Below, piece after piece: positions 2,934-61,555 of a stretch of DNA of 64,000 nt. The notes under the pieces were generated by a model. That model saw only the letters and a list, made by a program, of their open reading frames with translations. It was not told where the DNA came from and did not search any database. The DNA comes from a phage: sequence record OZ346222.1; one strand, written 5' to 3'. Position 1 is the first letter of the stretch; each line of letters begins with the position of its first letter. A program made the position numbers and the translations under genes.

Positions 2934-3359
2934 ATGATCTATGAAATGCCAAAACTGATTCGTGACGATGCCCAAAACGCTCACACCATTATTATGGGCA
3001 AACGCATGGATATTATTTGTCATAAAGATTTCTGGGAAGGAAGTTACTTCACAGAGTATTTTGGTAAACTGGATAATGGTCTGCTGATCCAGTTCTACAC
3101 CGATGCGGAAAACAACATTCCCTGGGAGTTCGAAACTGAAGATATTCATAAACTTTTCACCTTCCTCGATATTAAGGTTAAGGCCAAGTTTGAAGAGGGT
3201 GAGTGCGACGATTGTGGATTTTATGAGGTAACAGATTTCTATCTTCCAAGTGGTAAGAACCTTTACTATGAAAGCCACTTCGGTAACTCAAATATGCCAC
3301 AGTGCTGGACTGAGTTTTTTGAAATTGTGGAAGAGGAGCTGGCATATCGTGATTATTGA
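2934..3359 (+). CDS. hypothetical protein (141 aa)
   Basis: Track ORF; GGAGA RBS. Confidence 0.55.
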   Translation: MIYEMPKLIRDDAQNAHTIIMGKRMDIICHKDFWEGSYFTEYFGKLDNGLLIQFYTDAENNIPWEFETEDIHKLFTFLDIKVKAKFEEGECDDCGFYEVTDFYLPSGKNLYYESHFGNSNMPQCWTEFFEIVEEELAYRDY

Positions 3360-3807
3360 TACTGTAGAGGGAGATTTAATCTCCCTTTTTAAGAGCGGTG
3401 CTGGTCACCTGATCCACGGTTGTAACTGCTTCCACACAATGGGTAAGGGTGTAGCAAAACAGATTGCCCGTGAGTTCCCTCAAGCATTGGAAGCTGATAA
3501 AATGACTATGCACGGTTGCCTAAGTAAACTGGGCGCGTTCTCCCGCTGGGAGCACTTATCTCCGAGAGGTATTGTCTACGGAATAAATCTGTATACTCAG
3601 TTCTACCCAGGGCCTAATGCTGAATATTTCTCAATACTGAAAGGCTTTGAGCGAGTCAATGAAGTATTTGAGGGGTCGATTTTACCATTCTACATCCCTA
3701 AGATCGGGTGCGGCATAGGTGGTTTGAAGTGGGAACATGTAGAGGACATTATTAACCTTGCCACTTTTGATATAGATATTATCGTGGTGGAGTACAAAGA
3801 GTGTTGA
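3250..3807 (+). CDS. macro-domain-like protein (putative ADP-ribose binding/processing)
   Basis: Track ORF; glycine-rich segments HGCNCFHTMGKGVAKQIA and KIGCGIGG resemble macro domain loops; start uncertain because the 5' end overlaps the upstream ORF. Confidence 0.5.
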   Translation: MVRTFTMKATSVTQICHSAGLSFLKLWKRSWHIVIIDTVEGDLISLFKSGAGHLIHGCNCFHTMGKGVAKQIAREFPQALEADKMTMHGCLSKLGAFSRWEHLSPRGIVYGINLYTQFYPGPNAEYFSILKGFERVNEVFEGSILPFYIPKIGCGIGGLKWEHVEDIINLATFDIDIIVVEYKEC

Positions 3808-5947: not shown

Positions 5948-6140
5948 GTACTCGATCTGTTTTTCATTTCAAAGACCTGATTTTCTGAAAATTTTTCTCG
6001 ATAAATTTCTTAGTACTCGATCTGTTTTTCATTTCAAAGACCTGATTTTCTGAAAATTTTTCTCGATAAATTTCTTAGTACTCGATCTGTTTTTCGTTTT
6101 CTGAATCGGATTTTCTGGAAATCGTTCCAGCTCTCGACCT
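5948..6140. repeat. tandem direct repeat, about 64-bp unit, two full copies plus a diverged third
   Basis: Unit GTACTCGATCTGTTTTTCATTTCAAAGACCTGATTTTCTGAAAATTTTTCTCGATAAATTTCTTA repeated exactly twice, third copy diverges. Confidence 0.8.
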
Positions 6141-6305
6141 GAAATTTTTGGGGACGAAATCGATTTTTCGTTTTCAGAAATGGATTTTTAAAATTTCTAT
6201 ATGGGAATATTTTATGGGATACTGTTTTATAGGAAATTGTTACGGAGGGTAATTAGCATGCTAATTAAATTTATTAAATGCGAGGAGTTCTCATTTAGAA
6301 TTTTG

Positions 6306-6495
6306 AATGATAATCATTCTCGTTTGCAGAATAACGGGCAGGCCCGGTGATTGTCTCCCGGCCCCTACTGCCCCGGCTTGTTATTATAGTATCACACAGG
6401 ACAAAGAAAGCAAGGATTTTTTGCATAAATTTTTAAATGATAATGATAACCGTTCTCATTTTATGCAGCGCCCATCCCCGGTGGTTGTCTCCCCC
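6306..6495. repeat. two about 60-bp direct repeats ending in GC-rich core CCGGTG(A/G)TTGTCTCCC
   Basis: AATGATAAT...TTGCAG...CCGGTGATTGTCTCCCGG at about 6306-6365 and a variant at about 6436-6495; third inverted copy of the core at about 16115-16139. Confidence 0.7.
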
Positions 6496-6716
6496 GTCAC
6501 CGGTGCCTGCCGTCCTTTCGATAGGTATATCGTGCCACCTGGCGGGGCCGCTGTCAACACTTTTCAAAAAATTTTTCTAACCTGATGCGCTAACCGCTGC
6601 AACCTGGCGGGGTCAGCCTGGCAGGACCTAACTGACCGGGTAGGAGAGAATGAAGGCTTGTAAACCTGGTGGGCCTATGCTACAGGATAGGTAACAATTG
6701 AAGAGGAGGTACAAAA

Positions 6717-6884
6717 ATGAAAGGTAATATGATCCCCCTAGAAAATGTAGCTATTAATGACGCTGAGGCTATCGCCCTGGTTGAAAAGGCTATGGCGGGA
6801 GCGTTGGAACATAAAGAAGAGTACGAAAAATGGTGGTTAACCTGGCGGGGGCGGCAGGTGGATTCTATCATAAAAATAATTTAA
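6717..6884 (+). CDS. hypothetical small protein (55 aa)
   Basis: Below track cutoff; GAAGAGGAGG RBS then ATG; open frame to TAA. Confidence 0.4.
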   Translation: MKGNMIPLENVAINDAEAIALVEKAMAGALEHKEEYEKWWLTWRGRQVDSIIKII

Positions 6885-16988: not shown

Positions 16989-17408
16989 ATGAACATTAAA
17001 TCTAATAATCCGGCATATAGCTTTGATAACGCTTTTTGTCACGGTCCGGCGGCGAAAGGATTCGAAATCGATGGTAAACTAATTATTGTCAATGTTGACG
17101 GGGAAGAGGTTGCAGTATATCCGGTGGCAGACGTAAAAAGCCGTTTACAATGCCGCATGGATGTTACCGCCTATCAGCTTGATCCGGTCCGCATAGTTGC
17201 CCTGGTCCTGGAAGAAGAAATTAAAGCCATGCACCATAGCAACAGATTTATTGGTGACGCGCAGGATAATATGAAAGTATGCCGCCATAAAGTTAATGAA
17301 GTGCTTAAAGAGTACGGCTATAAAGATCTTATGATCAAACGTGAGGAAAAATTCCGCTACCGTAACGACCTGGCAAATCGGATTTTTGAAATATACGAAT
17401 CATTATAA
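16989..17408 (+). CDS. hypothetical protein (139 aa)
   Basis: Track ORF; TAAGAGG RBS. Confidence 0.6.
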   Translation: MNIKSNNPAYSFDNAFCHGPAAKGFEIDGKLIIVNVDGEEVAVYPVADVKSRLQCRMDVTAYQLDPVRIVALVLEEEIKAMHHSNRFIGDAQDNMKVCRHKVNEVLKEYGYKDLMIKREEKFRYRNDLANRIFEIYESL

Positions 17409-17426
17409 TTTTTTAACTGAATTATC

Positions 17427-17452
17427 AAGGGGCTTAGGCCCCTTTCTTTTTG
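17427..17452 (+). terminator. intrinsic terminator closing the rightward early array
   Basis: AAGGGGC tta GGCCCCTT followed by TCTTTTT. Confidence 0.7.
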
Positions 17453-17889
17453 TCTGCTCTTCCCCCTACCATAAACGGCCCTACCTGGCAAGTGGAATAA
17501 TTGACGAGCCATCAATCCCACACACTGTACAAATATACATGTAAAATAACTATTGCATAACCTTTCATTGTGTGGTAGCGGTGCTATTTTTTACCTGTTT
17601 TCCTTCCAAAATTGCACGTAATGCAGCTATTGCACAAAATTTAACCTGATGCACATCTCCAATATCCTGTCAACAACTAAAAATCTTTATAAGTCATACA
17701 CTTACACAGCATCGAAAGCGTGTTCTACGCGAAAAATCGAGTATAACTATAGCCGCCAGATCTCAGAATTCACGTACGCACGCCATTCTATAGCCTGCAA
17801 AGTATTTATTCCAACCACAGAATAACGGAATAGTCAATACCTGAATAAAATAATTATTCGTTTAAACTGCATAACATAAATCAGCTCAG

Positions 17890-19410
17890 GTGTCAACATT
17901 TTTCGTAAACAGTCTGAAATTGTCACTGTGAGTTATCATAAACAGAGAAATCTTTAGTCGTATAATGTTTACTGTACGTTACTATACTGACTGGAATCAT
18001 TAGATGACTAATAGAAAGATAAGAAATAATTAACAATACAATTATTTTACCTGTAACAATAAGACAACTATGCAAACGAATGGCATGGCGCGACGGAGTC
18101 GCGACATAATATAAAAGCAGTAACCATCACCCCCGTGATGGTTTGTCTGCAATCTATTAATCAGATCATAGTTGCCTTGTATTCAGTTAATCATGACATA
18201 ATAAGCAAGGCAACTATAGATCTGCTAATAGTTGCCCTGCTTTTATATTATGTCATATATTATTAACTTGTTAATTGTTAACTTGCTAATTGTTTTCATG
18301 CAAACGAATGTCATGGCTTATCCTATCTGTGTAAACAGTTAAGGTGTAAACTATCCAGGCGTAAACAGTCTATGCGGGAACAATCTATACGTGAACAGTG
18401 AAACATGAAATAATAACAGTCGTTATTGTGTCGAAAGTGTATAAGGTGTCAGACAAGTTTTTCTCCTCTTTGTCAAGTGCTGCATGAAAAATTTACAAGC
18501 TTGTATGGTAGCATTTTTGCGGCCCTGTTTACATTCAGCGATGTATGTATAATCCTTGTTGTGTGGGCGTTTAGACGTCTAGACGGTCAGAAGTCTGCAG
18601 GTTAATACCTAATCTATCGGCTGCTAACTATATCCCACACAAATAGTAAGAAATATAATTGTTATGTGCGTAAACAGTAACTCATGTTATCAATCCCTGT
18701 ATGTATCGCCAGTGGTGCGCATAATGGGTATTATGTTAAATTGCCCGTAATGATAACTATTCTCACAATGATAGGTATTCTCATTCACTCCCACAAGATA
18801 GGTTGCAAATGTTGTGCCACTGTGTGAACGGCCTAACCTATTAATTTGCCTCACTGCCTCGATATTTGAGAATTGTTATAAGAATGAGAAGTATTCCCAT
18901 TTCGTCCGCCTGGCAGCACTCCAGTCGCTACCGCTCATGACAGGGCAGAACTAGACCCTCTTCAGATATTTCTGGCTGACTCTTCAGGTCTGTGTGGGAA
19001 AAGCCAACCTCTCCGGCGGCGGGGAGGGGGTCAATTAAAAAAAATTACGTGGTGCATGAAGCGCTCTTCAGGTAAGGCATGTGTTATGGGATGAAACCCT
19101 CTTCAGGCAATGATATTTGTGGGTGTGATATTTGCTGGAAAGCCAGATATGACGGGACTCCTGGCGGGGCAGGGGTAGTACAGACAGGGAAAATATGGGG
19201 GATGTAGTTGGGGAAATTGATCAGACAGGTAGAGTATGGAATATGTTACAAGTATGTTAAATAGGGAGGATGAATATCTGCAGGATTTGTGTGTAAAATC
19301 AAAGACTTAAGTGGTGTTGTGGTATTTTCTATAAATAATTCAAGTTTAATAGGTAATATTTGTCTCTATCCACTTTGTGTGGTAAACAGATTCAGATGAA
19401 ATTGGTTTAC
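17890..19410. repeat. iteron field: at least 8 copies of GTAAACAG(T) in both orientations
   Basis: Copies at about 17899, 17969(-), 18332, 18361, 18527(-), 18669, 19381 plus variants GTAAACTA, GTGAACAG; no ORF of 60 aa or more in 17545-19823. Confidence 0.6.
18150..18320. repeat. nested inverted and direct repeats
   Basis: ATAGTTGCCTTG / CAAGGCAACTAT perfect 12-bp inverted repeat, ATGACATAATA / TATTATGTCAT inverted repeat, TAATTGTT direct repeats, flanked by direct repeats ATGCAAACGAATG(G/T)CATGGC at about 18070 and 18298. Confidence 0.7.
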
Positions 19411-19873
19411 AAGTGTATACATAATATACAAATTAAAGATACAAGAAACCCCCCTCCCCCTTCGGCTACCATTCACCTTTTCCTCTGACTGGTACTTAAA
19501 CACTTATTCAGACTCTTCAGGTTATCACCCATATATCATATGGCAGTGACTGGTGTCCTCCGGCCCCTCTTTCGTCACCCGTCCGCTTCGCCATGCTAAT
19601 GCCATAGCCAATGGTTCGGTTGTTCACTCTGTTCACTCAGGTGTATCTCCATACCCCTTCAAACCGAAGAGAACAGAAAACCCGAATTACTCGGTAAAAG
19701 AAAAGAGAAGAACTTAATTTTATCAGGATAGGCAAGAATGTCAAGGCATGACTGCTCACTAAACAAGCAAACAGTCATGTGTGGAAGGTAAGTGATTGTG
19801 GTGGTGGGAAATTTAGTTGAAAGATGTGTTATAGGTGCGCTTCCAGCACTTTGGCCGGGCAGCTAATTGTGTG

Positions 19874-20089
19874 TCAGTCCAGCGGTTCATCCTCTACTTC
19901 ACTGAAATCAATGTTCATGGTCTCCTCCCAACCATCGATCTCAGCACAAGAGTGGAGTTCTTTAGGGTTTACTCCCAAAGCCTCAGCAACAGAGTCTATA
20001 TTTAACACCTCTGGCAGGTATGATTCATCGAATTCAAGGTAAATCAGGCCACGAGTGTTGTCAGCTCCACCAAATATCTCTATCTTCAT
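19874..20089 (-). CDS. hypothetical acidic protein (71 aa)
   Basis: Track ORF; last gene of leftward array. Confidence 0.5.
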   Translation of the reverse strand: MKIEIFGGADNTRGLIYLEFDESYLPEVLNIDSVAEALGVNPKELHSCAEIDGWEETMNIDFSEVEDEPLD

Positions 20090-20210
20090 GAAATCTCCTC
20101 TGGAAATGAGAGTGTGAACAGGGTTTTATACGTTCTAATGCACAGGAATTATACACGTTTGCCTCTTCAGGCCATGCTTTAGCATGAGGAACCTGTGTGG
20201 GCTCGGTGCT

Positions 20211-27533: not shown

Positions 27534-27628
27534 AATTCAGCCTCGCATAGACATAATCACTATAAACAGGCAAACAATGAATCCGAATGCCACGCCACCC
27601 ATAAACGTTAATATTGATGCAATCATAG

Positions 27629-27826
27629 TCAATCAGCCTCGCTTGGCAACTCTTCTACCTTAACATGCCGAAAAGTGTTACCGTAATGGTTGATCCATGA
27701 CATCAGCTCGCTTTCTTGCTCTTCCTCTGGGATGAACTCTCGAATGCTGACAAGTTTTAAGAAAACCCAATCACAATCTGCACCCATTCTACCAGACAGG
27801 CAATAGTGCTTCATAAAACCCCCCAC
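27629..27826 (-). CDS. hypothetical protein (65 aa)
   Basis: Track ORF. Confidence 0.5.
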   Translation of the reverse strand: MGGFMKHYCLSGRMGADCDWVFLKLVSIREFIPEEEQESELMSWINHYGNTFRHVKVEELPSEAD

Positions 27827-27831
27827 CTGGT

Positions 27832-28026
27832 TTAGAATATTGCTTCTTCCATTGCACCTGAGAGCAACAAAGAGGTGATCTGGCTAACATTCATCTCAGA
27901 CTCTACTTCCTCCCCTTTGAAAGGTTCGCGGCAGAATAGGACTGTTTCAGGACTTTTACTTCGAACAATATAATACAAATCATTCAATGTGTTGTAGTAA
28001 TAAGTGTTAAAACGTAAGTTTTTCAT
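27832..28026 (-). CDS. hypothetical protein (64 aa)
   Basis: Track ORF. Confidence 0.5.
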   Translation of the reverse strand: MKNLRFNTYYYNTLNDLYYIVRSKSPETVLFCREPFKGEEVESEMNVSQITSLLLSGAMEEAIF

Positions 28027-28310
28027 TTTCTAGTCCCCTTCTTAGATTTTTGTGTAGAAACGCTTTCTGCAATACGAGACAAACGTTCTTCTGAAGCCTT
28101 GCCTATTCCAGGTTTTTTGAGTGGGTTATCTTTATGACCACAATCCAATTGGATATTGGATACCTCTCCAACCTTGTAAGTCAATTCTAGCAAAAGGTTG
28201 TCGTCCTTGTCAAATGTTCTTACGATAAATTTTTTATCGTTCTCCTGAACTTCGTATCGGGTACCCGCAGTATACAGCATGGTGCCATCCGCATAGGATA
28301 TCCAGATCAT
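28023..28310 (-). CDS. hypothetical protein (95 aa)
   Basis: Track ORF; ATGA coupling. Confidence 0.5.
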   Translation of the reverse strand: MIWISYADGTMLYTAGTRYEVQENDKKFIVRTFDKDDNLLLELTYKVGEVSNIQLDCGHKDNPLKKPGIGKASEERLSRIAESVSTQKSKKGTRK

Positions 28311-32194: not shown

Positions 32195-33244
32195 TTAAGC
32201 TTCTTCGACAATTCCTGCACCCAGGATTTTTTCATTGAGCTCTTTTGCTGTTTTAATAATATTGTCCACCAGACGCTTGCGAGTCTTATCTTTCACCTTA
32301 ACCTCTTCACCGCCGTTCAGAGTAGTCTTCAATTGAGACAGAATATCCTGAAGTTCAACGACAGAGAATCTCTGCAGATCTTCTGAAGTAATCTCACTCA
32401 GGGCAATTCTGACGGTCTCGCCACTTTCCATCTGCAGATTCAGGAACACAGTGTGAACATCACCTTTCGAACCACCCGCTTTTGCAGATTCAACAGCATG
32501 AACTAACTCATCTAAAGATGTGCACTGGTGAATCTCCGGAAGACCTGCTTCACCTAACACGCCTTCTTCATCACCTTTTGCCAGAAGCTTTTTCGGTTTT
32601 TGTCCGTTCTGGATGCGTTGTATGTTGCCTTCATCCAGAATAATAGCTCCAGTGCGTGCTGCCAGCTCTTCTCCGTCCAACCACACTTCGCCACCAGCTG
32701 TGATGGATGCGATCTCATCTTCTGTCAGCACCCCACCGTAGTATTTTTCGATCAGGCGTTCAAAACGTTTTTTCCAGTAGCTGACCTGAGTATTCATGTT
32801 CACACCGTTACCATAAGTGCCACCTTGATAGTAGTGGAACATAAACTCTGTGTCCGGAGCCACAGTACGTTCTTTACAACCAAGCCATAAGATTGTTCCA
32901 GCAGAGCAGCACATCCCTTCAGCATGTGCAACAACGCTTGCCTGAGACTCTCGGAATGCCTGCAGATAAGCCATTGCAATGTGCACGCAACCCCCAGGGC
33001 TATTGATGATCACCCGAATGCTTTCTTCCGGCTGAGCCATACGGATCGTCTGCAGACGAGACATATGATCTTGTAAGTCTTCCAAATCGTCGATATAAAG
33101 AACGTGGTCAACAACAGGTGTTGGGTAGCTGTATGTTTCCATGATACCGCCCGGCATACCAAACATTTTATTACTCATAGGTTCGAAACCGTTCTGTTTT
33201 TCTTTCATGCCGTGCACCATGGTTCTGCGAGGTGTTAAATTCAT
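32195..33244 (-). CDS. ClpP-family serine peptidase with C-terminal extension
   Basis: Track ORF; VIINSPGGCVHIAMAYL and GMCCSAGTIL match the ClpP active-site region. Confidence 0.7.
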   Translation of the reverse strand: MNLTPRRTMVHGMKEKQNGFEPMSNKMFGMPGGIMETYSYPTPVVDHVLYIDDLEDLQDHMSRLQTIRMAQPEESIRVIINSPGGCVHIAMAYLQAFRESQASVVAHAEGMCCSAGTILWLGCKERTVAPDTEFMFHYYQGGTYGNGVNMNTQVSYWKKRFERLIEKYYGGVLTEDEIASITAGGEVWLDGEELAARTGAIILDEGNIQRIQNGQKPKKLLAKGDEEGVLGEAGLPEIHQCTSLDELVHAVESAKAGGSKGDVHTVFLNLQMESGETVRIALSEITSEDLQRFSVVELQDILSQLKTTLNGGEEVKVKDKTRKRLVDNIIKTAKELNEKILGAGIVEEA

Positions 33245-52041: not shown

Positions 52042-53325
52042 TCATTCCAGAACCTCCCAAGTATCTGGGTTAACATTTCGGACGCAGATACCGACAGGGA
52101 ATTGGTAGTTGTTGTCTTCTGTCCTTGCTTGATATTTGAAGGTGACAAACTTGCCGATCATTTCCTGCATCCTGTCATAGCTACGCTCCTCGTGCGTGCC
52201 TTTCATCTTCATTTTAACAACAACACCTTCCTTGTCAACACAGATAAGAACACCTTCATCATTCTTATCTTTCTCAACGTCAATAACTTTCACCTCTGCG
52301 TCGTTGAACTTTTTCCATTTCAATGCTTCAGATGTTCGCTGACCATACTCATATTTACCACAGAAGTTACGCATAATGGTACCTTCATATCCTTCAGACA
52401 TAAATATACCAACAGACTCTTCGCACCGATCAACCGTATATGCAAGCTCTGCATCAACAACCTTAATATGATCAAGCATCAAAGAAGTAATAGCACCGTT
52501 TGCCTCCATAAGATCCTTACAGCGACCAGACTCTGTTTCAGGATCCCACCACACCTTATCGCTAGGAATATCGAAAATATGATACTCTAAGTCGTAGCTG
52601 CAGTACCCTTCGTAACGCAAATCATCACGAACAGGCTCAACATCAACAGGAATGTCCACCTTGTTGAAGTTTTTGTATGTTGCTAAACCTGCTTTAATCG
52701 CAGCCTGACGGCGTTTTTTATCTGCCTTGTAGTCTTTATCGATCTCGGCCTGAATTTCTTCCTGTGTGCGCCACCGTTTAGCAAGAGACACTATTTTCTG
52801 CAGAGGTAGACCATGAATATAGAGCTCTCCGTCGAGCTGTTTAATCCCGGTGGTTAGGTGGAAAGAGCGAAGTTGCTCCAGAAGCTTTCCTTGAATAGGG
52901 TAGGACTTATTACCACGGGAAATAAATTTAGGCTCACCATTCTGGAAAACAACAAGTAGACGAAGGCCATCTAACTTACGCAAGATCCAGCAAGGTAATT
53001 TAAGTGCCTTGCCACGCTTCAGGTAGTCATGCACCAACATGGGTAAAAGATCAACACCTTGCTCACAATCTTCCATACTCTCCACGTACCCGAGTCGGAC
53101 CTGTTTTTCCCACTTACTGATCGCTTCCAGCTCGGCCTGTTGCTCAGCTGTAGTTTCATTGGCGCGACCCACGTTCTTAGGTGTGCAGATCGTCTCTTTG
53201 TATTGCAGTTTACCATCAAGCTTGCCAAACTCTACGATAACCTTATCACCATCCGTGAATACTTTCCACTGTTGGTAGCTGCCATCTTTGTTCAGTGCGT
53301 ACAGTGTTGTTTTGATTTGATGCAT
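52042..53325 (-). CDS. DNA ligase (probably ATP-dependent)
   Basis: 427-aa track ORF; adenylation motif KLDGLR (KxDGxR). Confidence 0.7.
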   Translation of the reverse strand: MHQIKTTLYALNKDGSYQQWKVFTDGDKVIVEFGKLDGKLQYKETICTPKNVGRANETTAEQQAELEAISKWEKQVRLGYVESMEDCEQGVDLLPMLVHDYLKRGKALKLPCWILRKLDGLRLLVVFQNGEPKFISRGNKSYPIQGKLLEQLRSFHLTTGIKQLDGELYIHGLPLQKIVSLAKRWRTQEEIQAEIDKDYKADKKRRQAAIKAGLATYKNFNKVDIPVDVEPVRDDLRYEGYCSYDLEYHIFDIPSDKVWWDPETESGRCKDLMEANGAITSLMLDHIKVVDAELAYTVDRCEESVGIFMSEGYEGTIMRNFCGKYEYGQRTSEALKWKKFNDAEVKVIDVEKDKNDEGVLICVDKEGVVVKMKMKGTHEERSYDRMQEMIGKFVTFKYQARTEDNNYQFPVGICVRNVNPDTWEVLE

Positions 53326-53594
53326 TACTCGGCCTCTTCCTTAAAAATTTTAAACATCTCTTCTTTACTCATTACCAACCAGTCCCCCATAAAATCAACA
53401 AGCCAATCACCCTGGTACAAGACTAGGTTACCAAACGGCTCTACAAGCTCACACATGCGACGAAGATCTCTGGTCCGAACAGGTGACGATGTAAACACAC
53501 CTGTATCAATCCACCGTTGCAGATCAGATACTGATGAAGAGCTTCCGTCAAACTGGTGTGCTTCTACAGGTTTAGCAAGATTAAATAACGGCAT
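53325..53594 (-). CDS. hypothetical protein (89 aa)
   Basis: Track ORF. Confidence 0.5.
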   Translation of the reverse strand: MPLFNLAKPVEAHQFDGSSSSVSDLQRWIDTGVFTSSPVRTRDLRRMCELVEPFGNLVLYQGDWLVDFMGDWLVMSKEEMFKIFKEEAE

Positions 53595-53919
53595 TGCAGT
53601 CCTCCTTATCTAATAGATCTTTTATTGGGTAAACAAGCAGGTGTGGATCGTAATAATTTATAGTTTTATTCTGCCACACTATGAACTTAATTACAACTAA
53701 ATTTACCACATCTTTATCTCCATGTAGTCCAACACACAGATTTGTCCATATTTTGTGGTTGAATACTTTGCTGTCGATGTAGATCTTAGTGTCAAACTTA
53801 TCCTCTATCCTGCCTATAAGTTTAACCAACTCTTTCATCTGATCCCCAAACACAGCATCGTTTTCAAGATCTCTAGAGTGCTTGTACATAACTATCTGCC
53901 TCACTTGCATACTTTCCAC
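53581..53919 (-). CDS. hypothetical protein (112 aa)
   Basis: Track ORF. Confidence 0.5.
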   Translation of the reverse strand: MESMQVRQIVMYKHSRDLENDAVFGDQMKELVKLIGRIEDKFDTKIYIDSKVFNHKIWTNLCVGLHGDKDVVNLVVIKFIVWQNKTINYYDPHLLVYPIKDLLDKEDCNAVI

Positions 53920-53952
53920 AACAAGTAAAGCCGGGTAATCCCGGCCATGTTG

Positions 53953-54666
53953 TTAAATATACTCTGCTACATCCTTGAAGCTCGAAGGCTTCATGATCTT
54001 ACCTTTACTGTCAAGGAATATGATAACTTTATTACCGTTGTAGAATTCTTCCTTAGCAACAAAACCTTCATATCGACCATCAAAGCGTCGCTCAAGATCT
54101 TTAATCTCCAACTCTATGAGTTGTTCAGCAGGCATATCTGCACTGGCACCGTGTGAATACCGTAGATGGTTGACCCGTGCAAACTTGCTGTCATTCGATT
54201 TGAGAACCTTACGCATCATCCCGCACACATCGCCGCGAAGCTGGAACAGCAAAGCTGTTGACAACTCCGCTAAACGGTAAGCTGACGCTCTTTGCTTGGA
54301 TGTGTTTTTCGCAGCGATCAGTGTGTCATAGAACTCACCGATCTTGAACTTAAGACCTCGTGGATTATCAAACAGGTTTGACCACTTTTCGTGATTGTCA
54401 TTAACAAGATAAGCTGCATAACTTGTGACAACGTGAAGATCGCAGGCCTCCTTTAGCAGGTGATCTCCACCATCACCTTTCTCCAGCTCTTCCAAAACTT
54501 CATTGAACTCTTCCTCAATGAAGCTAAGCTGTAATTCGAATGGTGTGTATGATTTTTTCACTTTAGCTGCCACACGGTTCCAGTTTTCCACCCAGTTGGC
54601 AGACCAAAGGTAGTTTTCAGGTTGGGATAGTTTTTCCAGGTTGTCAATTAATTTAGTATTCAGCAT
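53953..54666 (-). CDS. hypothetical protein (237 aa), possible MazG-like nucleotide pyrophosphohydrolase
   Basis: Track ORF; EEEFNEVLEELE...D acidic helix reminiscent of MazG; weak. Confidence 0.3.
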   Translation of the reverse strand: MLNTKLIDNLEKLSQPENYLWSANWVENWNRVAAKVKKSYTPFELQLSFIEEEFNEVLEELEKGDGGDHLLKEACDLHVVTSYAAYLVNDNHEKWSNLFDNPRGLKFKIGEFYDTLIAAKNTSKQRASAYRLAELSTALLFQLRGDVCGMMRKVLKSNDSKFARVNHLRYSHGASADMPAEQLIELEIKDLERRFDGRYEGFVAKEEFYNGNKVIIFLDSKGKIMKPSSFKDVAEYI

Positions 54667-54679
54667 TAAAGGTCTCCTT

Positions 54680-55441
54680 TTAAAGTTCCATAAAGTTTTC
54701 TACAGTCTCAATGAATGTTTTATCAGAGAAGGCATCAACCGCACCGTTAAACCAAACTGGGATGCCACGATCCTCATACTGGTAAATATCACTACGTGAA
54801 ATGCCATTCTCCTCTAGATGCTGTGAGTCGTATTTATTAACGATCAGTAGTTTGGTTCCCTTATTGCAGGCAGGGAATAGCTCCCAGTTAAAATTGATAA
54901 CTGTGTTGGAGCACCCTACAAGGATAACCATATCATTGCTCGTAAGAGAAGTCAACAGGTCATACATGTCTGTATACTTCGGAGCTACTTCTCCGAAGAA
55001 CACCACATTAGGCTTAACCCAGGTATACTTTCCTGCGTCTACCTCAGAGTATCCAATGTCCTTAATGACGTCACTTCCTTCATCGTCCTCATAGACTATT
55101 TCTGGCAAATACCCGTGGACATGTAAAATATCTTCATGTTTTACACCAGCACGCTCCAGCAAATCATCTACATTGGTGGTAAGGTTGATCACACGACCAG
55201 ACCAGCGGGAATACCACTCAGCGATCCGAAGATGTGCAAGGTTAGGCTCAACACTGCCTAAAGCTACACGACGTGCATTGTAAAAGTCATGCACCTTATA
55301 GTAGTTCTTGGCAAAGGTGTGGATGTTGCACACCTCATCGATGCTGAAATTCTCCCACATTGCAGTGCTACCAGATCGGAAAGTGGGAATACCAGATTCA
55401 GCGCTCAAACCAGCACCGGAGATAATAATCAGTCGTCGCAT
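54680..55441 (-). CDS. Sir2-family NAD-dependent deacylase-like protein
   Basis: Track ORF; GAGLSAESGIPTFR NAD-binding signature, HG and FFGE motifs. Confidence 0.8.
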   Translation of the reverse strand: MRRLIIISGAGLSAESGIPTFRSGSTAMWENFSIDEVCNIHTFAKNYYKVHDFYNARRVALGSVEPNLAHLRIAEWYSRWSGRVINLTTNVDDLLERAGVKHEDILHVHGYLPEIVYEDDEGSDVIKDIGYSEVDAGKYTWVKPNVVFFGEVAPKYTDMYDLLTSLTSNDMVILVGCSNTVINFNWELFPACNKGTKLLIVNKYDSQHLEENGISRSDIYQYEDRGIPVWFNGAVDAFSDKTFIETVENFMEL

Positions 55442-55449
55442 AAGTGTCC

Positions 55450-55800
55450 TCAGTAGATGTTTTGTTTAATCTCTATTCCAAACTTTTTAAACGAGTCAGC
55501 TGCAAGCATGAATTTACGAGCCGCTGATGGGTTAGAAGTATGCACGAAAATCTTCACGTTGTCAACTACAGGAGGCTTACCAAATACAAATTTTTCCTCC
55601 AACATAGATAGGCAATCGTACCCTTCGAATACCTCTCCAAGGTCGTTGTCCATATGCCACTCAGAAACGCGTCTGTAGAGCTTTCTATTATCGTTAATAA
55701 AATCTATAAACTCGGAGGAATTCTTTAGCCAAACAGCGTCTTGGAGCCCGTACTTTGACGGATCTCTCAAGTCATCTAGCCACACAATCAACTTCTTCAT
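55450..55800 (-). CDS. hypothetical protein (116 aa)
   Basis: Track ORF; ATGA coupling to rnlA. Confidence 0.5.
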   Translation of the reverse strand: MKKLIVWLDDLRDPSKYGLQDAVWLKNSSEFIDFINDNRKLYRRVSEWHMDNDLGEVFEGYDCLSMLEEKFVFGKPPVVDNVKIFVHTSNPSAARKFMLAADSFKKFGIEIKQNIY

Positions 55801-56732
55801 TGCATATAGTTCTCGTTGTGGAAATAGTAATCGAGTATCTCACGGCGTTCCTGCTCCAGGAGGCAGTTCCATACATCCTCTGTGTAGTTGTTACGAATGA
55901 AGTTTACCATGCCGTAAAACTCTTCGTCAACACGTTTAAAGATATCATCATCCCAAATCTTCCAAGCTTTACCCCTCATTACGGCCTTCCGTGCCAGATA
56001 GTATGGAGACTTAATCTTCAGCTGCAGATCATAAGGGTAGTAAGGCTTACGAATCATATACCCTTCACCTCTTGTTTCTGCAGCTAATTCTTTTGCATAA
56101 CTGAACGGAATTTCACGCACAGTGTGAGGACGTTTTGCACCAAGGTATTTGGCAATCCCATCTAAAGCTGCTTCTGGTAGCATTATTCCAGAATCATTAT
56201 ATCTGCAACCTATCAAATATGCGCCACGATCTTCCTGAACAATATGCGGATCTGAGGGGTGACAAATTTCAAACATGAATGTCATATTTTCATTGCCCAT
56301 AACCTTCTTGATAAGATCTAAATTACCACATTGCTCCTGGATGGTTTCCTTTGCAAGGTTACAATATGGAGAATCAAGAGACCCGGTTGTTGAGAACAAT
56401 AGTTCACCTTTATGAGATGACACCACACCAAGGAATCCGTTCTTTTTCTCTACCGCCGTCACAAGCTTATTGTCAGGCAGGTTGGTGGAGTTTTCTCCCA
56501 AGTTAAACACTTTTGTAAAGGGCCATGCCACAACATTTCCTTCATTACCGACAACAATGCCTCGGCACTCCAGTAATCGAGGAGACAAATGCCATAAGTT
56601 GTTGTAGAATACTTTTCTGGCATATTTATAGATCTTTAACCCAAGGTCTGGGTGATATCTGCTGGTTACAAGACCTTTGTCAACTAGGTCGTCTGCATTA
56701 AAATACTTCATCATACGTTCCTCATTTGTCAT
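55797..56732 (-). CDS. rnlA: RNA ligase 1 (T4 RnlA-like)
   Basis: Track ORF; LLECRGIVV, VFNLGEN and lysine motif VEKKNGFLGVVS align with T4 RnlA LLECRGIMF, FFNLNEN, LTKEDGSLVSTY. Confidence 0.75.
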   Translation of the reverse strand: MTNEERMMKYFNADDLVDKGLVTSRYHPDLGLKIYKYARKVFYNNLWHLSPRLLECRGIVVGNEGNVVAWPFTKVFNLGENSTNLPDNKLVTAVEKKNGFLGVVSSHKGELLFSTTGSLDSPYCNLAKETIQEQCGNLDLIKKVMGNENMTFMFEICHPSDPHIVQEDRGAYLIGCRYNDSGIMLPEAALDGIAKYLGAKRPHTVREIPFSYAKELAAETRGEGYMIRKPYYPYDLQLKIKSPYYLARKAVMRGKAWKIWDDDIFKRVDEEFYGMVNFIRNNYTEDVWNCLLEQERREILDYYFHNENYMQ

Positions 56733-56775
56733 TTTGTCAGTCTATCCTGCCACACAAATAACCTAGTGTCAACAC

Positions 56776-56804
56776 TTGAAATTAACAAAACAGTTAGGTA
56801 TACT
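56776..56804 (+). promoter_or_regulatory. sigma70-like promoter in divergent intergenic region
   Basis: TTGAAA, 17-nt spacer, TATACT. Confidence 0.5.
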
Positions 56805-56832
56805 ATCGTTGAAATTAAAACGGAGGATTACT

Positions 56833-57243
56833 ATGTCTAAAATGCTATATATCGTGCGTGGTCTACCAGGGTCTGGCAAATCAACACTGGCAAGTGCGCT
56901 ATCTTTAGAAGGTCTGTATCCACATTTTGAGAACGACATGTTCTGGTACGACGATGATGGAAATTACAACTGGGATGCAAGTAAAGTAACACTTGCAGCA
57001 AAATGGTGCAAAGATAACGTAGAAGATATGATGCGTATGGGATACGACCGTATCGTGGTAAGTAATACATTTACAAAAGAAAAATATGTGCAAGAATATA
57101 TTGACATGGCGATCAGTCATGGGTATAGTTATACCGTAATCGTGGTTGAAAACCGCCATGGTAGTAAAAGCATTCATGATGTTCCAGACAGGGTTGTGGA
57201 TCGTATGGAACGCCAGCTTAAAAACTGCATTAAACTTAAATGA
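56833..57243 (+). CDS. polynucleotide 5'-kinase domain protein (T4 Pnk kinase-like)
   Basis: Track ORF 56776..57243 trimmed to ATG after ACGGAGGA RBS; P-loop GLPGSGKST as in T4 Pnkp. Confidence 0.65.
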   Translation: MSKMLYIVRGLPGSGKSTLASALSLEGLYPHFENDMFWYDDDGNYNWDASKVTLAAKWCKDNVEDMMRMGYDRIVVSNTFTKEKYVQEYIDMAISHGYSYTVIVVENRHGSKSIHDVPDRVVDRMERQLKNCIKLK

Positions 57244-57250
57244 GGAATGT

Positions 57251-57805
57251 ATGAAATACTTTGTAACAAGCGACACACACTTTCTCCACCAGCGGGTCAT
57301 GGAGTTTGACTCATGTCAAAAACACAGATCTCAGTATGATCACAATCTTGACAGTATGAATGCGGGGATCATCACCAAGTGGAACTCTGTTGTGTCACCT
57401 GCAGACACTGTGTTTCACTTAGGAGATATTGCGTGCACTAATGATAAGAATATTAACAAATTGCTCCCAGATGTTCTAAATATGTTGAACGGACATATTA
57501 TTCTTGTTCGTGGTAACCATGACACAAGGACGACTGTCAGAATTATGAAAGAGTTCGGTCATGAGGTTGTAGATTATTACGAGCTTCGCCACAACAAGAA
57601 TTTGATCTGTATGAGCCATTACCAGTTTGCAAAGTGGAACAGAAAGCCTCACGGATCGGTCCAACTGTTCGGTCATGCTCACGGAACCACACAGCAGTTG
57701 TTTGGCAGGCAGTTTGATGTCGGTTGGGATGTGTGGGGGAGACTCTTACCATTAGAAGAGGCATACCGTATTGCAATGAGTCTTGCTATTGACAGCGTGG
57801 AGTAA
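57251..57805 (+). CDS. calcineurin-like metallophosphoesterase
   Basis: Track ORF 57146..57805 trimmed to ATG after GAGGAA RBS; motifs DTHF, GDIA, GNHD, GHAHG. Confidence 0.7.
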   Translation: MKYFVTSDTHFLHQRVMEFDSCQKHRSQYDHNLDSMNAGIITKWNSVVSPADTVFHLGDIACTNDKNINKLLPDVLNMLNGHIILVRGNHDTRTTVRIMKEFGHEVVDYYELRHNKNLICMSHYQFAKWNRKPHGSVQLFGHAHGTTQQLFGRQFDVGWDVWGRLLPLEEAYRIAMSLAIDSVE

Positions 57806-60742: not shown

Positions 60743-60817
60743 GCCCTGTTAGCTTAGTGGATAAAGCAGCGGCCTTCTAAGCCGTTGACACTGGTTCGAG
60801 TCCAGTACGGGGTGCCA
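60743..60817 (+). tRNA. tRNA-Arg (anticodon TCT)
   Basis: Manual fold: 7-bp acceptor with G-U pairs, anticodon loop CTTCTAA, T-loop TTCGAGT, 3' CCA encoded. Confidence 0.7.
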
Positions 60818-60821
60818 AATT

Positions 60822-60908
60822 GGGGAGTTATCCCGTAGAGGTAGCGGTGTAGACTGTAAATCTATTGTCATTGCGACTCGGGTGGTTCGACTCCACCACT
60901 CCCCACCA
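60822..60908 (+). tRNA. tRNA-Tyr (anticodon GTA), long variable arm
   Basis: Acceptor GGGGAGT/ACTCCCC, anticodon loop CTGTAAA, long extra arm, T-loop TTCGACT, CCA encoded. Confidence 0.75.
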
Positions 60909-61022
60909 AATTTATATTTTTAGATGCATAAATAATACAGATAATGGCATTGATATTTATCGTCGTTTATACTAGTCACTAACTGCTCGAAAATCAGTGT
61001 CATTATCAGTATAATTTATAAA

Positions 61023-61113
61023 GGAGGGTAGGGAGCAATGGTGCTCAAGCGGTATTGAAAACCGTCCCGTTGAGGATGACTCGATGATGGTTCGATTCCA
61101 TTACTCTCCGCCA
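61023..61113 (+). tRNA. tRNA-Ser (anticodon TGA), long variable arm
   Basis: Acceptor GGAGGGT/ACTCTCC, anticodon loop ATTGAAA, about 20-nt extra arm, T-loop TTCGATT, CCA encoded. Confidence 0.7.
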
Positions 61114-61211
61114 CATTGTTGACCTTGTAATTAAGCGAAAGCCGGAAGCAGAACCGGATTATCAAATGTTACAGTCGTCATCGCCGACTAGCAACATGGT
61201 CAACATACTGA

Positions 61212-61308
61212 GCTAGGTAAGCCCTTTGGCAAGGGCGAGGATTTTTAATCCTGAAAATAGACGAGGTAGTCGTTGAATACATAGGTGGTTCGATTCCATC
61301 ACCTAGCA
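61212..61308 (+). tRNA. atypical tRNA-like gene (possible anticodon TTT) with about 30-nt extra arm
   Basis: Acceptor GCTAGGT/ACCTAGC, D-arm GCCC/GGGC, 4-bp anticodon stem with loop TTTTTAA, T-arm GGTGG TTCGATT CCATC; no CCA; extra region too long for a canonical tRNA. Confidence 0.35.
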
Positions 61309-61315
61309 CCTTTTT

Positions 61316-61391
61316 GCTGATGTAGCACAATCGGTAGTGCAATTGATTTGTAATCAATAGGTTGTAGGTTCAAGTCCTGCCATCAGCACCA
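61316..61391 (+). tRNA. tRNA-Thr (anticodon TGT)
   Basis: Acceptor GCTGATG/CATCAGC, anticodon stem ATTGA/TCAAT with loop TTTGTAA, T-loop TTCAAGT, CCA encoded. Confidence 0.75.
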
Positions 61392-61392
61392 A

Positions 61393-61467
61393 GGCCCTGT
61401 AGCTGGAAGGTTCAAGCAAGCGACTCATAATCGCCAGACGGTGGTTCAATTCCACCCAGGGCCACCA
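61393..61467 (+). tRNA. tRNA-Met or Ile2 (anticodon CAT), elongator type
   Basis: Acceptor GGCCCTG/CAGGGCC (G1-C72 paired), anticodon loop CTCATAA, T-loop TTCAATT, CCA encoded. Confidence 0.7.
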
Positions 61468-61478
61468 AATAGTAAATA

Positions 61479-61555
61479 CTCCGCGTAGCTCAGCTTGGTA
61501 GAGCGCCTGATTTGGGATCAGGAGGTCGAGTGTTCGAATCACTCCGTGGAGACCA
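61479..61555 (+). tRNA. tRNA-Pro (anticodon TGG)
   Basis: Acceptor CTCCGCG/CGTGGAG, anticodon stem CCTGA/TCAGG with loop TTTGGGA, T-loop TTCGAAT, CCA encoded. Confidence 0.75.

Follow-up and report, generated by a model that had tools for sequence, protein, structure and literature searches.

A sirtuin without a zinc ribbon in the RNA-repair gene cluster of an rV5-like phage and its possible Tpt1-like role

The 64,000-nucleotide stretch of phage DNA analyzed here (sequence record OZ346222.1, hereafter the window) encodes a protein of the sirtuin (Sir2) family in a compact cluster together with predicted RNA-end healing and sealing enzymes. Our leading, still tentative, interpretation is that this sirtuin provides the step dependent on nicotinamide adenine dinucleotide (NAD) in the phage repair of broken RNA, probably transfer RNA (tRNA), where it would remove 2'-phosphates in the manner of Tpt1. 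The system is already known, both from annotation and from a published prediction (Iyer, Burroughs, Anantharaman and Aravind, 2022, Viruses 14:1977, PMC9503650, section 3.7.3), and its anatomy and linkage were reproduced independently in the present work. The gene in question is the following:

54680..55441, minus strand: sirtuin (Sir2) gene, 253 amino acids, ATG start, class III-like, without the zinc ribbon

SIR2 (PF02146) was the sole Pfam match of this open reading frame (ORF), with E = 3e-27 and 96 bits for a cut-off of 24, and the ORF also matched PHROG 2162, 'Sir2' (E = 9e-110), as well as SIRT5 and CobB among the PDB sequences (about 2e-21 with HMMER). Residues 9-22, GAGLSAESGIPTFR, contain the NAD-binding motif G9-A-G-L-S13 followed by F21-R22, and a GAGGA ribosome-binding site, read from the sequence, lies 6 nt upstream of the start codon, where it shares nucleotides with the preceding gene's stop codon. 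The Sir2 signature described in an earlier note on this region, made from the sequence alone, is thus real, the matches being far above chance. The same note was right in considering the gene as phage-encoded: the 6.3-kb region around it is 99.7% identical to Escherichia phage slur16 (Vequintavirus, an rV5-like myovirus), and 123 phage records are at least 90% identical to it. In existing records (more than 100 phage genomes), the gene is labeled 'Sir2-like' or 'NAD-dependent deacetylase'. It is under strong purifying selection, with ratios of nonsynonymous to synonymous substitution rates (dN/dS) of 0.053 in the comparison with a relative of 95% identity and 0.022 in that with phage RudolfGeigy, which equal those of the neighboring DNA ligase gene.

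The family was aligned in sets of 21 and 65 members sharing 48-98% identity. Residues G9, A10, G11, S16, F21, R22, Y54, R57, R58, N90, and D92, and also H109, G110, K143, P144, F148, F149, E151, G176, S178, N179, and N202, are invariant, and S13 is nearly so (at least 90% of the 65 homologues). According to the HMMER alignment, the SIRT5 equivalents of the phage residues are F70, R71, Y102, R105, N141, D143, and H158, a set made up of NAD-binding and catalytic residues together with the Y-x-x-R pair. More precisely, H109-G110, N90, and D92 align with SIRT5 H158, N141, and D143, and Y54-N-A-R57, invariant in the family and in its bacterial relatives, aligns with SIRT5 Y102-H-Y-R105. The Y-x-x-R pair of class III sirtuins binds succinyl- or malonyl-lysine through the carboxylate, and the Y54/R57 pair could just as well hold a phosphate. 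The loop F148-F-G-E151 is retained, and the textbook TQNxD motif reads TTNVD, with Thr in place of Gln. Judging from these intact residues, the protein looks active, that is, a catalytically competent sirtuin that would consume NAD+.

In the window protein, as in all 21 homologues of the alignment, the segment from HG to KPNVVFFGE is free of cysteine, and the four-cysteine zinc ribbon is therefore gone. The model and the alignment place instead, at this position, a cysteine-free three-stranded beta element or hairpin with a conserved (D/E)-I-G-Y motif. Among 150 representatives obtained by clustering at 50%, cysteine-free TTNVD forms grade into four-cysteine TQNVD forms, and FYNxRR and IGY are kept in all 150. 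The AlphaFold2 model of the sirtuin, built with 65 homologues, reached a mean predicted local distance difference test (pLDDT) of 89 and a predicted template modeling score (pTM) of 0.87. Its best Foldseek matches in the PDB were two structures of E. coli CobB (6rxq and 1s5p, E = 3e-18, TM score 0.74/0.83), followed by Sir2Af1 and human SIRT5. No ADP-ribosyltransferase-fold domain of the KptA/Tpt1 type was found in the protein, for which Pfam gives SIR2 only and the fold is that of a sirtuin.

The neighborhood of the sirtuin gene comprises the following features:

52042..53325, minus strand: ATP-dependent DNA ligase (Pfam and PHROG), in the same direction as the cluster

53325..53919, minus strand: two small conserved ORFs of 89 and 112 amino acids with no known function (PHROG 14585 and PHROG 7684)

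53929..53946, minus strand: GC-rich hairpin GGCCGGG-ATTA-CCCGGCT with a T-rich tail, directly 3' of the MazG-like gene (consensus scan only)

53953..54666, minus strand: MazG-type all-alpha nucleotide pyrophosphohydrolase with a C-terminal beta extension, 237 amino acids (PHROG 671, 5e-22)

55450..55800, minus strand: cREC (cyclic-phosphate-processing receiver) protein, 116 amino acids (Pfam PF20274, cREC_REC, E = 4.5e-15, 56.5 bits, cut-off 27)

55797..56732, minus strand: ATP-dependent RNA ligase of the T4 Rnl1 type, 311 amino acids (Pfam RNA_lig_T4_1, 4.3e-15; PHROG 562, 1e-66)

56833..57243, plus strand: P-loop kinase, polynucleotide 5'-kinase-like, 136 amino acids (Pfam AAA_33, 2.4e-10, and Zeta_toxin, 2e-5)

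57251..57805, plus strand: calcineurin-like metallophosphoesterase, 184 amino acids (Pfam Metallophos, 1.4e-5; PHROG 547, 2e-50; phage annotation)

The RNA ligase, cREC, sirtuin, and MazG-like genes follow one another in this order, and their junctions are operon-like, with 4-bp overlaps or gaps of 8-13 nt; the ligase stop and the cREC start share an overlap of 4 bp, and 13 nt separate the sirtuin gene from the MazG-like gene. The hairpin downstream may be a terminator or an RNA-stabilizing element that bounds this Rnl-cREC-Sir2-MazG transcription unit. The kinase and metallophosphoesterase genes are transcribed divergently from the RNA ligase gene.

The RNA ligase contains motifs I (K96-x-N-G), IV (E223-G), and V (K239-I-K241). 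As a single sequence it had no match in the PDB sequence search, and its family profile matched only T4 Rnl1 among the PDB chains (2c5u and 9do4, E = 6.5e-10), in an alignment that includes motifs I, IV, and V. The cREC protein keeps the receiver-like acidic site (D9, D10, D51, D53, T88/S89, and K96), and PF20274 was detected on all 54 full-length homologues; a fusion of cREC to a Nudix domain was sought among the close homologues, every one of which is a stand-alone protein of about 115 amino acids. In the MazG-like protein, the metal-binding motif E51-E-E-F-N-E56 ... E73-A-C-D76 (EEEFNE-x16-EACD) is invariant in the family apart from E73, which is near-invariant, and a precomputed PF01503 assignment exists for three homologues. 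Its model is of moderate quality (pLDDT 68.5), and the best fold matches, phage dimeric dUTPases, which belong to the same superfamily, were weak, with a probability of 0.99 but an E value of 0.15; the single sequence gave no match in the PDB sequence search. The kinase additionally matches PHROG 2071 and PHROG 505, 'polynucleotide kinase', and carries the label polynucleotide kinase in phage RudolfGeigy. The metallophosphoesterase is a candidate 2',3'-cyclic phosphodiesterase and phosphatase.

The linkage of these genes was analyzed in 64 viral loci, fetched with the sirtuin as bait, which were searched with the window proteins by tblastn. In 18 of the 64 loci, the Rnl, kinase, phosphoesterase, MazG-like, and DNA ligase genes, and usually the cREC gene, were found within about 5 kb of the sirtuin gene. 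These 18 loci, mostly on contigs of 135-153 kb, represent six sirtuin clusters with 44-95% identity, and their gene order differs from that of the window (for example Rnl-cREC-kinase-Sir2-DNA ligase-unknown-MazG). A linkage that outlasts rearrangement argues for functional coupling. The DNA ligase gene is linked to the cluster in every relative carrying the cassette, and homologues of the two small ORFs sit inside the same cluster in Mydovirus-like loci. These data bear on the two genes that flank the sirtuin gene, 53953..54666 and 55450..55800, which are present as the earlier note had described them. Its statement that they had no recognizable function does not hold, since they encode a MazG-type pyrophosphohydrolase and a cREC protein, and its suggestion that they may work with Sir2 is probably correct, in view of the tight packing and of a linkage that survives changes in gene order in relatives with sirtuins of only 44-57% identity.

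A second architecture was found in T5, whose sirtuin, T5.102, is 58% identical to that of the window and shares an annotated promoter-to-terminator unit with T5.105, which matches Pfam HAD_SAK_2 ('HAD domain in Swiss Army Knife RNA repair proteins', E = 4e-20). Two more T5-like clusters repeat this arrangement. In RefSeq, T5.105 (27589..28095 of locus L066; 57588..58094 of the T5 record) bears the name 'Sir2 (NAD-dependent deacetylase)', and the true sirtuin is T5.102; the name looks like a propagated mis-annotation.

In two otherwise different loci, a gene for nicotinamide phosphoribosyltransferase (NAMPT) lies directly 5' of the sirtuin homologue (6057..7490 in L062 and 4086..5525 in L087). 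Such a neighbor fits a sirtuin that releases nicotinamide, and the adjacency suggests local recycling of the nicotinamide that it frees. A NADAR domain and a PRPP-synthetase-like protein were also present among the neighboring ORFs that were scanned. Informative domain fusions were sought in the longer relatives, which contained only tandem sirtuins or unrelated C-terminal extensions without similarity to proteins of the cassette.

The gene set agrees with the type-2 neighborhood of Iyer et al., for which Escherichia phage V5 and Proteus phage Mydo are the prototypes (PMC9503650) and which the earlier note had overlooked. The sirtuin, T4-like tRNA ligase, cREC, nucleotide kinase, MazG, and calcineurin-like phosphoesterase genes, the last being optional in the definition of the type, are all located in 53953..57805; there is no substantive difference, and the window belongs to the same phage group. 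In that study, the predicted role of the phage sirtuin was a KptA-like removal of 2'-phosphates that stem from 2',3'-cyclic phosphates, with the associated enzymes either opening the cyclic phosphate or processing ADP-ribose cyclic phosphate. A third type, described from phage SP15, couples the sirtuin to a Swiss-army-knife HAD phosphatase. The cREC domain had been defined by the same group in a 2021 paper on jumbo phages (PMC7824862). Beyond Iyer et al. (2022) and this 2021 survey, our search of the literature found no experiment on a phage sirtuin or on another protein of this family, and in the NARP3 paper 'phage Sir2' occurs only inside the phrase 'anti-phage Sir2-HerA'.

The gene neighborhood points to RNA-end repair, and from it we infer a substrate and a chemistry for the sirtuin. 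The P-loop kinase would phosphorylate the RNA 5' end, and cREC and/or the metallophosphoesterase would open the cyclic phosphate. The sirtuin would remove any 2'-phosphate that remains, at the terminus or at a sealed junction, a phosphate oxygen attacking C1'' of NAD+ in its active site and expelling nicotinamide, and the Rnl1-type ligase would seal the break. The ADP-ribose by-product would be disposed of by cREC, the MazG pyrophosphatase, and a Macro-domain protein encoded elsewhere in the window:

3250..3807, plus strand: Macro-domain protein (Pfam PF01661, E = 2.2e-7, 31 bits, cut-off 22), about 51 kb from the sirtuin gene

This is the sole Macro ORF of the window and is unlinked to the sirtuin gene; Iyer et al. 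emphasize the absence of a Macro gene next to sirtuins of this kind (PMC9503650). In locus L050, a 34%-identical Macro homologue is located 5.5 kb from the sirtuin gene. The Macro protein could process the ADP-ribose by-product of the sirtuin, whether O-acyl-ADP-ribose or ADP-ribose-1''-phosphate.

Sirtuin catalysis proceeds in two steps, an attack of an oxygen on C1'' of NAD+ and then an attack by the ribose O2''. The same two steps are followed by Tpt1, in which an oxygen nucleophile attacks C1'' of NAD+ with release of nicotinamide and the ribose O2'' then attacks the electrophilic center (PMC11417386, PMC10622864). Some Tpt1 enzymes remove terminal 2'- or 3'-phosphates (PMC6573784), and healing of the ends before ligation would thus be possible even with an Rnl1-type ligase. 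The likeness to Tpt1/KptA would therefore lie in the proposed chemistry (the use of NAD+ to take a 2'-phosphate off RNA, with nicotinamide and the 1'',2''-cyclic phosphate of ADP-ribose as products) and in the place in the pathway, with putative phage counterparts for all the steps that follow in yeast, namely cREC for the cyclic phosphodiesterase, the Macro protein, and the MazG-like pyrophosphatase. Tpt1/KptA enzymes possess an ADP-ribosyltransferase fold, whereas the phage protein has the Rossmann fold of Sir2, and the relationship would be a functional analogy and not a family membership. With somewhat more reserve, it is conceivable that the sirtuin acts on nucleic acid and not on protein in a wider sense, as an NAD+-dependent RNA 2'-phosphotransferase or terminal phosphomonoesterase convergent with Tpt1/KptA, the phosphate being held by the Tyr/Arg pocket; the same RNA activity might then extend to the cellular relatives, as their active site is identical.

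Several observations weigh against a Tpt1-like role and lend strength to the view that the protein is an ordinary NAD+-dependent lysine deacylase (deacetylase or desuccinylase) of the CobB/SIRT5 kind, acting on host or phage proteins. All the support for an RNA substrate is contextual, and on homology alone lysine deacylation is the default activity. The linkage to RNA repair is not universal: in seven sirtuin clusters from phi92-like and related loci, the neighbors are unknown PHROGs, a DNA methyltransferase, and DUF7275/DUF7277 proteins, and no recognizable RNA-repair gene was found near the sirtuin. Moreover, a 2'-phosphotransferase is not obviously needed, since a kinase and a metallophosphoesterase suffice in repair of the T4 or Clostridium style, which leaves no 2'-phosphate. 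The RNA ligase resembles T4 Rnl1 and showed no match to fungal Trl1; a Trl1-type ligase, which would demand a 2'-phosphate, is accordingly not supported as the ligase of the cluster. The sirtuin is acidic (isoelectric point of 4.8, family median of 5.1) and has no invariant basic patch beyond the class III residues.

The cellular relatives point in the same direction. A scan of bacterial genomes yielded 263 of them. On Marinobacterium chromosomes (loci L067-L083 and L118, at about 6001..6730 of each), cysteine-free sirtuins with TTNVD, FYNxRR, and IGY are 43-49% identical to the phage enzyme and adjoin genes for an SNF-family transporter, a Glu/Leu dehydrogenase, and a 2-oxoacid:ferredoxin oxidoreductase, and Campylobacterota and other bacteria carry the four-cysteine form. 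The phage, Marinobacterium, and four-cysteine bacterial groups do not differ in any active-site residue, and nothing in the sequence marks a change of substrate. The loss of zinc is a trait of the subfamily, since it is common to the phage proteins and to these chromosomal relatives. As a mark of an RNA-directed function it was ruled out, the Marinobacterium proteins lacking the ribbon in metabolic contexts too. We also looked for active-site changes specific to phages and found none; the residues invariant in phages only (N86, N179, W76, K197, and G226) are not known to be catalytic. The Marinobacterium sirtuins are conserved across the whole genus and could serve for cellular comparison in assays. 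With respect to the published description, the present analysis adds the clade-wide loss of the zinc ribbon, the retained class III Y-x-x-R pair, the unlinked Macro gene, and the existence of ribbon-less cellular relatives in non-repair contexts with no phage-specific change in the active site.

The deacylase interpretation is further favored by the nearest relatives in sequence and fold (CobB, Sir2Af1, and SIRT5), by the NCBIfam matches, all of them to 'NAD-dependent protein deacylase' models though every score was under its cut-off, and by the conservation of the catalytic residues, FGE loop, and Y-x-x-R pair, also in bacterial relatives from ordinary chromosomal contexts. Factors of translation or RNA repair, or the ligases with a lysine nucleophile that are encoded alongside, could be among its targets, and the product, O-acyl-ADP-ribose, would be cleared by the phage Macro and MazG proteins, a Macro domain being the classical partner for this compound. 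Such an activity does not account for the fact that, in two unrelated architectures, the gene stays linked to those for RNA-end-healing enzymes, and it gives the cyclic-phosphate enzyme no role in handling the by-product. The host, in addition, already has CobB. Finally, the phage protein shares with CobB and SIRT5 the fold (TM 0.74-0.83), the NAD motifs, and the catalytic His/Asn/Asp, but it is only about 25-28% identical to them, reads TTNVD, lies in an RNA-repair cluster, and lacks the zinc ribbon found in every characterized deacylase sirtuin. Because the linkage is not universal, the closest cellular relatives lie in metabolic gene contexts, and their active site is identical to that of the phage protein, we regard an ordinary deacylase as nearly as likely as the Tpt1-like role.

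A less probable alternative, which we would not expect to hold, is that the sirtuin is an ADP-ribosyltransferase that leaves a stable mark, either on the 5'- or 3'-phosphate end of RNA or DNA, where it would serve for capping or protection, or on a host protein, for instance an anticodon nuclease. ADP-ribosylation of proteins is known for some sirtuins, and capping of 5'-phosphate ends for Tpt1 enzymes (PMC9503650, PMC8883491); the nucleic-acid-end context and the adjacent DNA ligase gene would fit such an activity, and reversal of the mark could fall to the Macro domain. However, the Macro gene does not adjoin the sirtuin gene, unlike in known sirtuin-Macro (SirTM-type) pairs, and the catalytic His that drives the second, deacylation-like step is strictly conserved.

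The last of the four interpretations, and a very improbable one, is an NAD+ glycohydrolase that would deplete or rewire host NAD+ or interfere with NAD-based immunity. Sir2 domains act as NADases in the Thoeris, DSR, SIR2-HerA, and short pAgo systems, and a low NAD+ level would be tolerable for a phage with an ATP-dependent DNA ligase. PADLOC, however, gave no meaningful match (a single candidate model, 13.6 bits, E = 0.0076, none of the matching segments passing by itself), no defense Sir2 was present among the top 50 fold matches of the sirtuin model, and the residues of the acyl/anion pocket, needless for a plain NADase, are conserved. With ThsA, DSR1/2, SIR2-HerA, and SPARSA, the phage protein has in common only the fold of the Sir2 superfamily and NAD+ binding; it is a single domain of 253 amino acids without a sensor or partner such as SLOG, HerA, pAgo, or a large DSR C-terminal domain, its active site is of the deacylase type, its gene belongs to the phage and not to the host, and its neighbors are RNA-repair enzymes. 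Two further points argue against NAD+ depletion as the purpose: the DNA ligase that T5 carries alongside this sirtuin is NAD-dependent, and T5-like phages put effort into the salvage of NAD+ (PMC13464706). A defense-type or anti-defense NADase was thus abandoned as a lead idea on the grounds of the PADLOC result, the deacylase-type fold, and the T5 DNA ligase. The two roles put forward in the earlier note, modification of host proteins and interference with NAD-based immunity, received no specific support from these data: the fold and residues are those of a deacylase-type class III sirtuin, and the surroundings of the gene point to the healing of RNA ends.

For the repair role that we tentatively prefer, the closest parallels in logic are T4 Pnkp/Rnl1 and Clostridium thermocellum Pnkp, in which a kinase, a phosphoesterase, and an Rnl-type ligase act on nuclease-cut tRNA, the phage ligase being nearest to T4 Rnl1. 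In the phage, these activities are distributed over separate small proteins, and cREC, the sirtuin, and MazG are extra components. If the predicted activity is true, sirtuins would gain a nucleic-acid substrate, and this one would be the first shown to repair RNA. Phages would then have a second, NAD-dependent route to heal tRNA cut by host defense nucleases, and the supply of NAD+, a target of many bacterial immune systems, would be tied to the upkeep of translation by the phage. A plain deacylase would be an example of phage manipulation of host protein acylation. In either case, the gene is conserved under strong purifying selection in well over 100 phages of E. coli, Salmonella, and Klebsiella, including T5 and therapy candidates. 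Since the computational description was already published, the value of the system lies in a well-defined experimental target and not in a discovery.

Possible substrates of the repair module are encoded nearby:

60743..61555, plus strand: cluster of 7 tRNA genes, 3 kb past the cassette

Inside this cluster, a tRNA-like gene (61212..61310, plus strand) is unusually long (97-99 nt). ARAGORN gave it no assignment, reporting a four-base 'anticodon' (atcc), its Rfam score was only 35.5 bits, and a related phage record names it tRNA-Lys.

Elsewhere in the window, a 2.8-kb segment (17408..20197) contains no ORF longer than 72 amino acids on either strand and no Rfam match at the gathering threshold; it may consist of many tiny early genes or of non-coding sequence. 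A Pfam scan of 100 ORFs of the window also revealed a Ribosomal_S30AE domain similar to ribosome-hibernation factors (E = 1.8e-12), a Clp-protease-like (ClpP-like) ORF (32195..33244, minus strand), PhoH, aerobic and anaerobic ribonucleotide reductases, ThyX, a glutaredoxin, and an NT5C nucleotidase.

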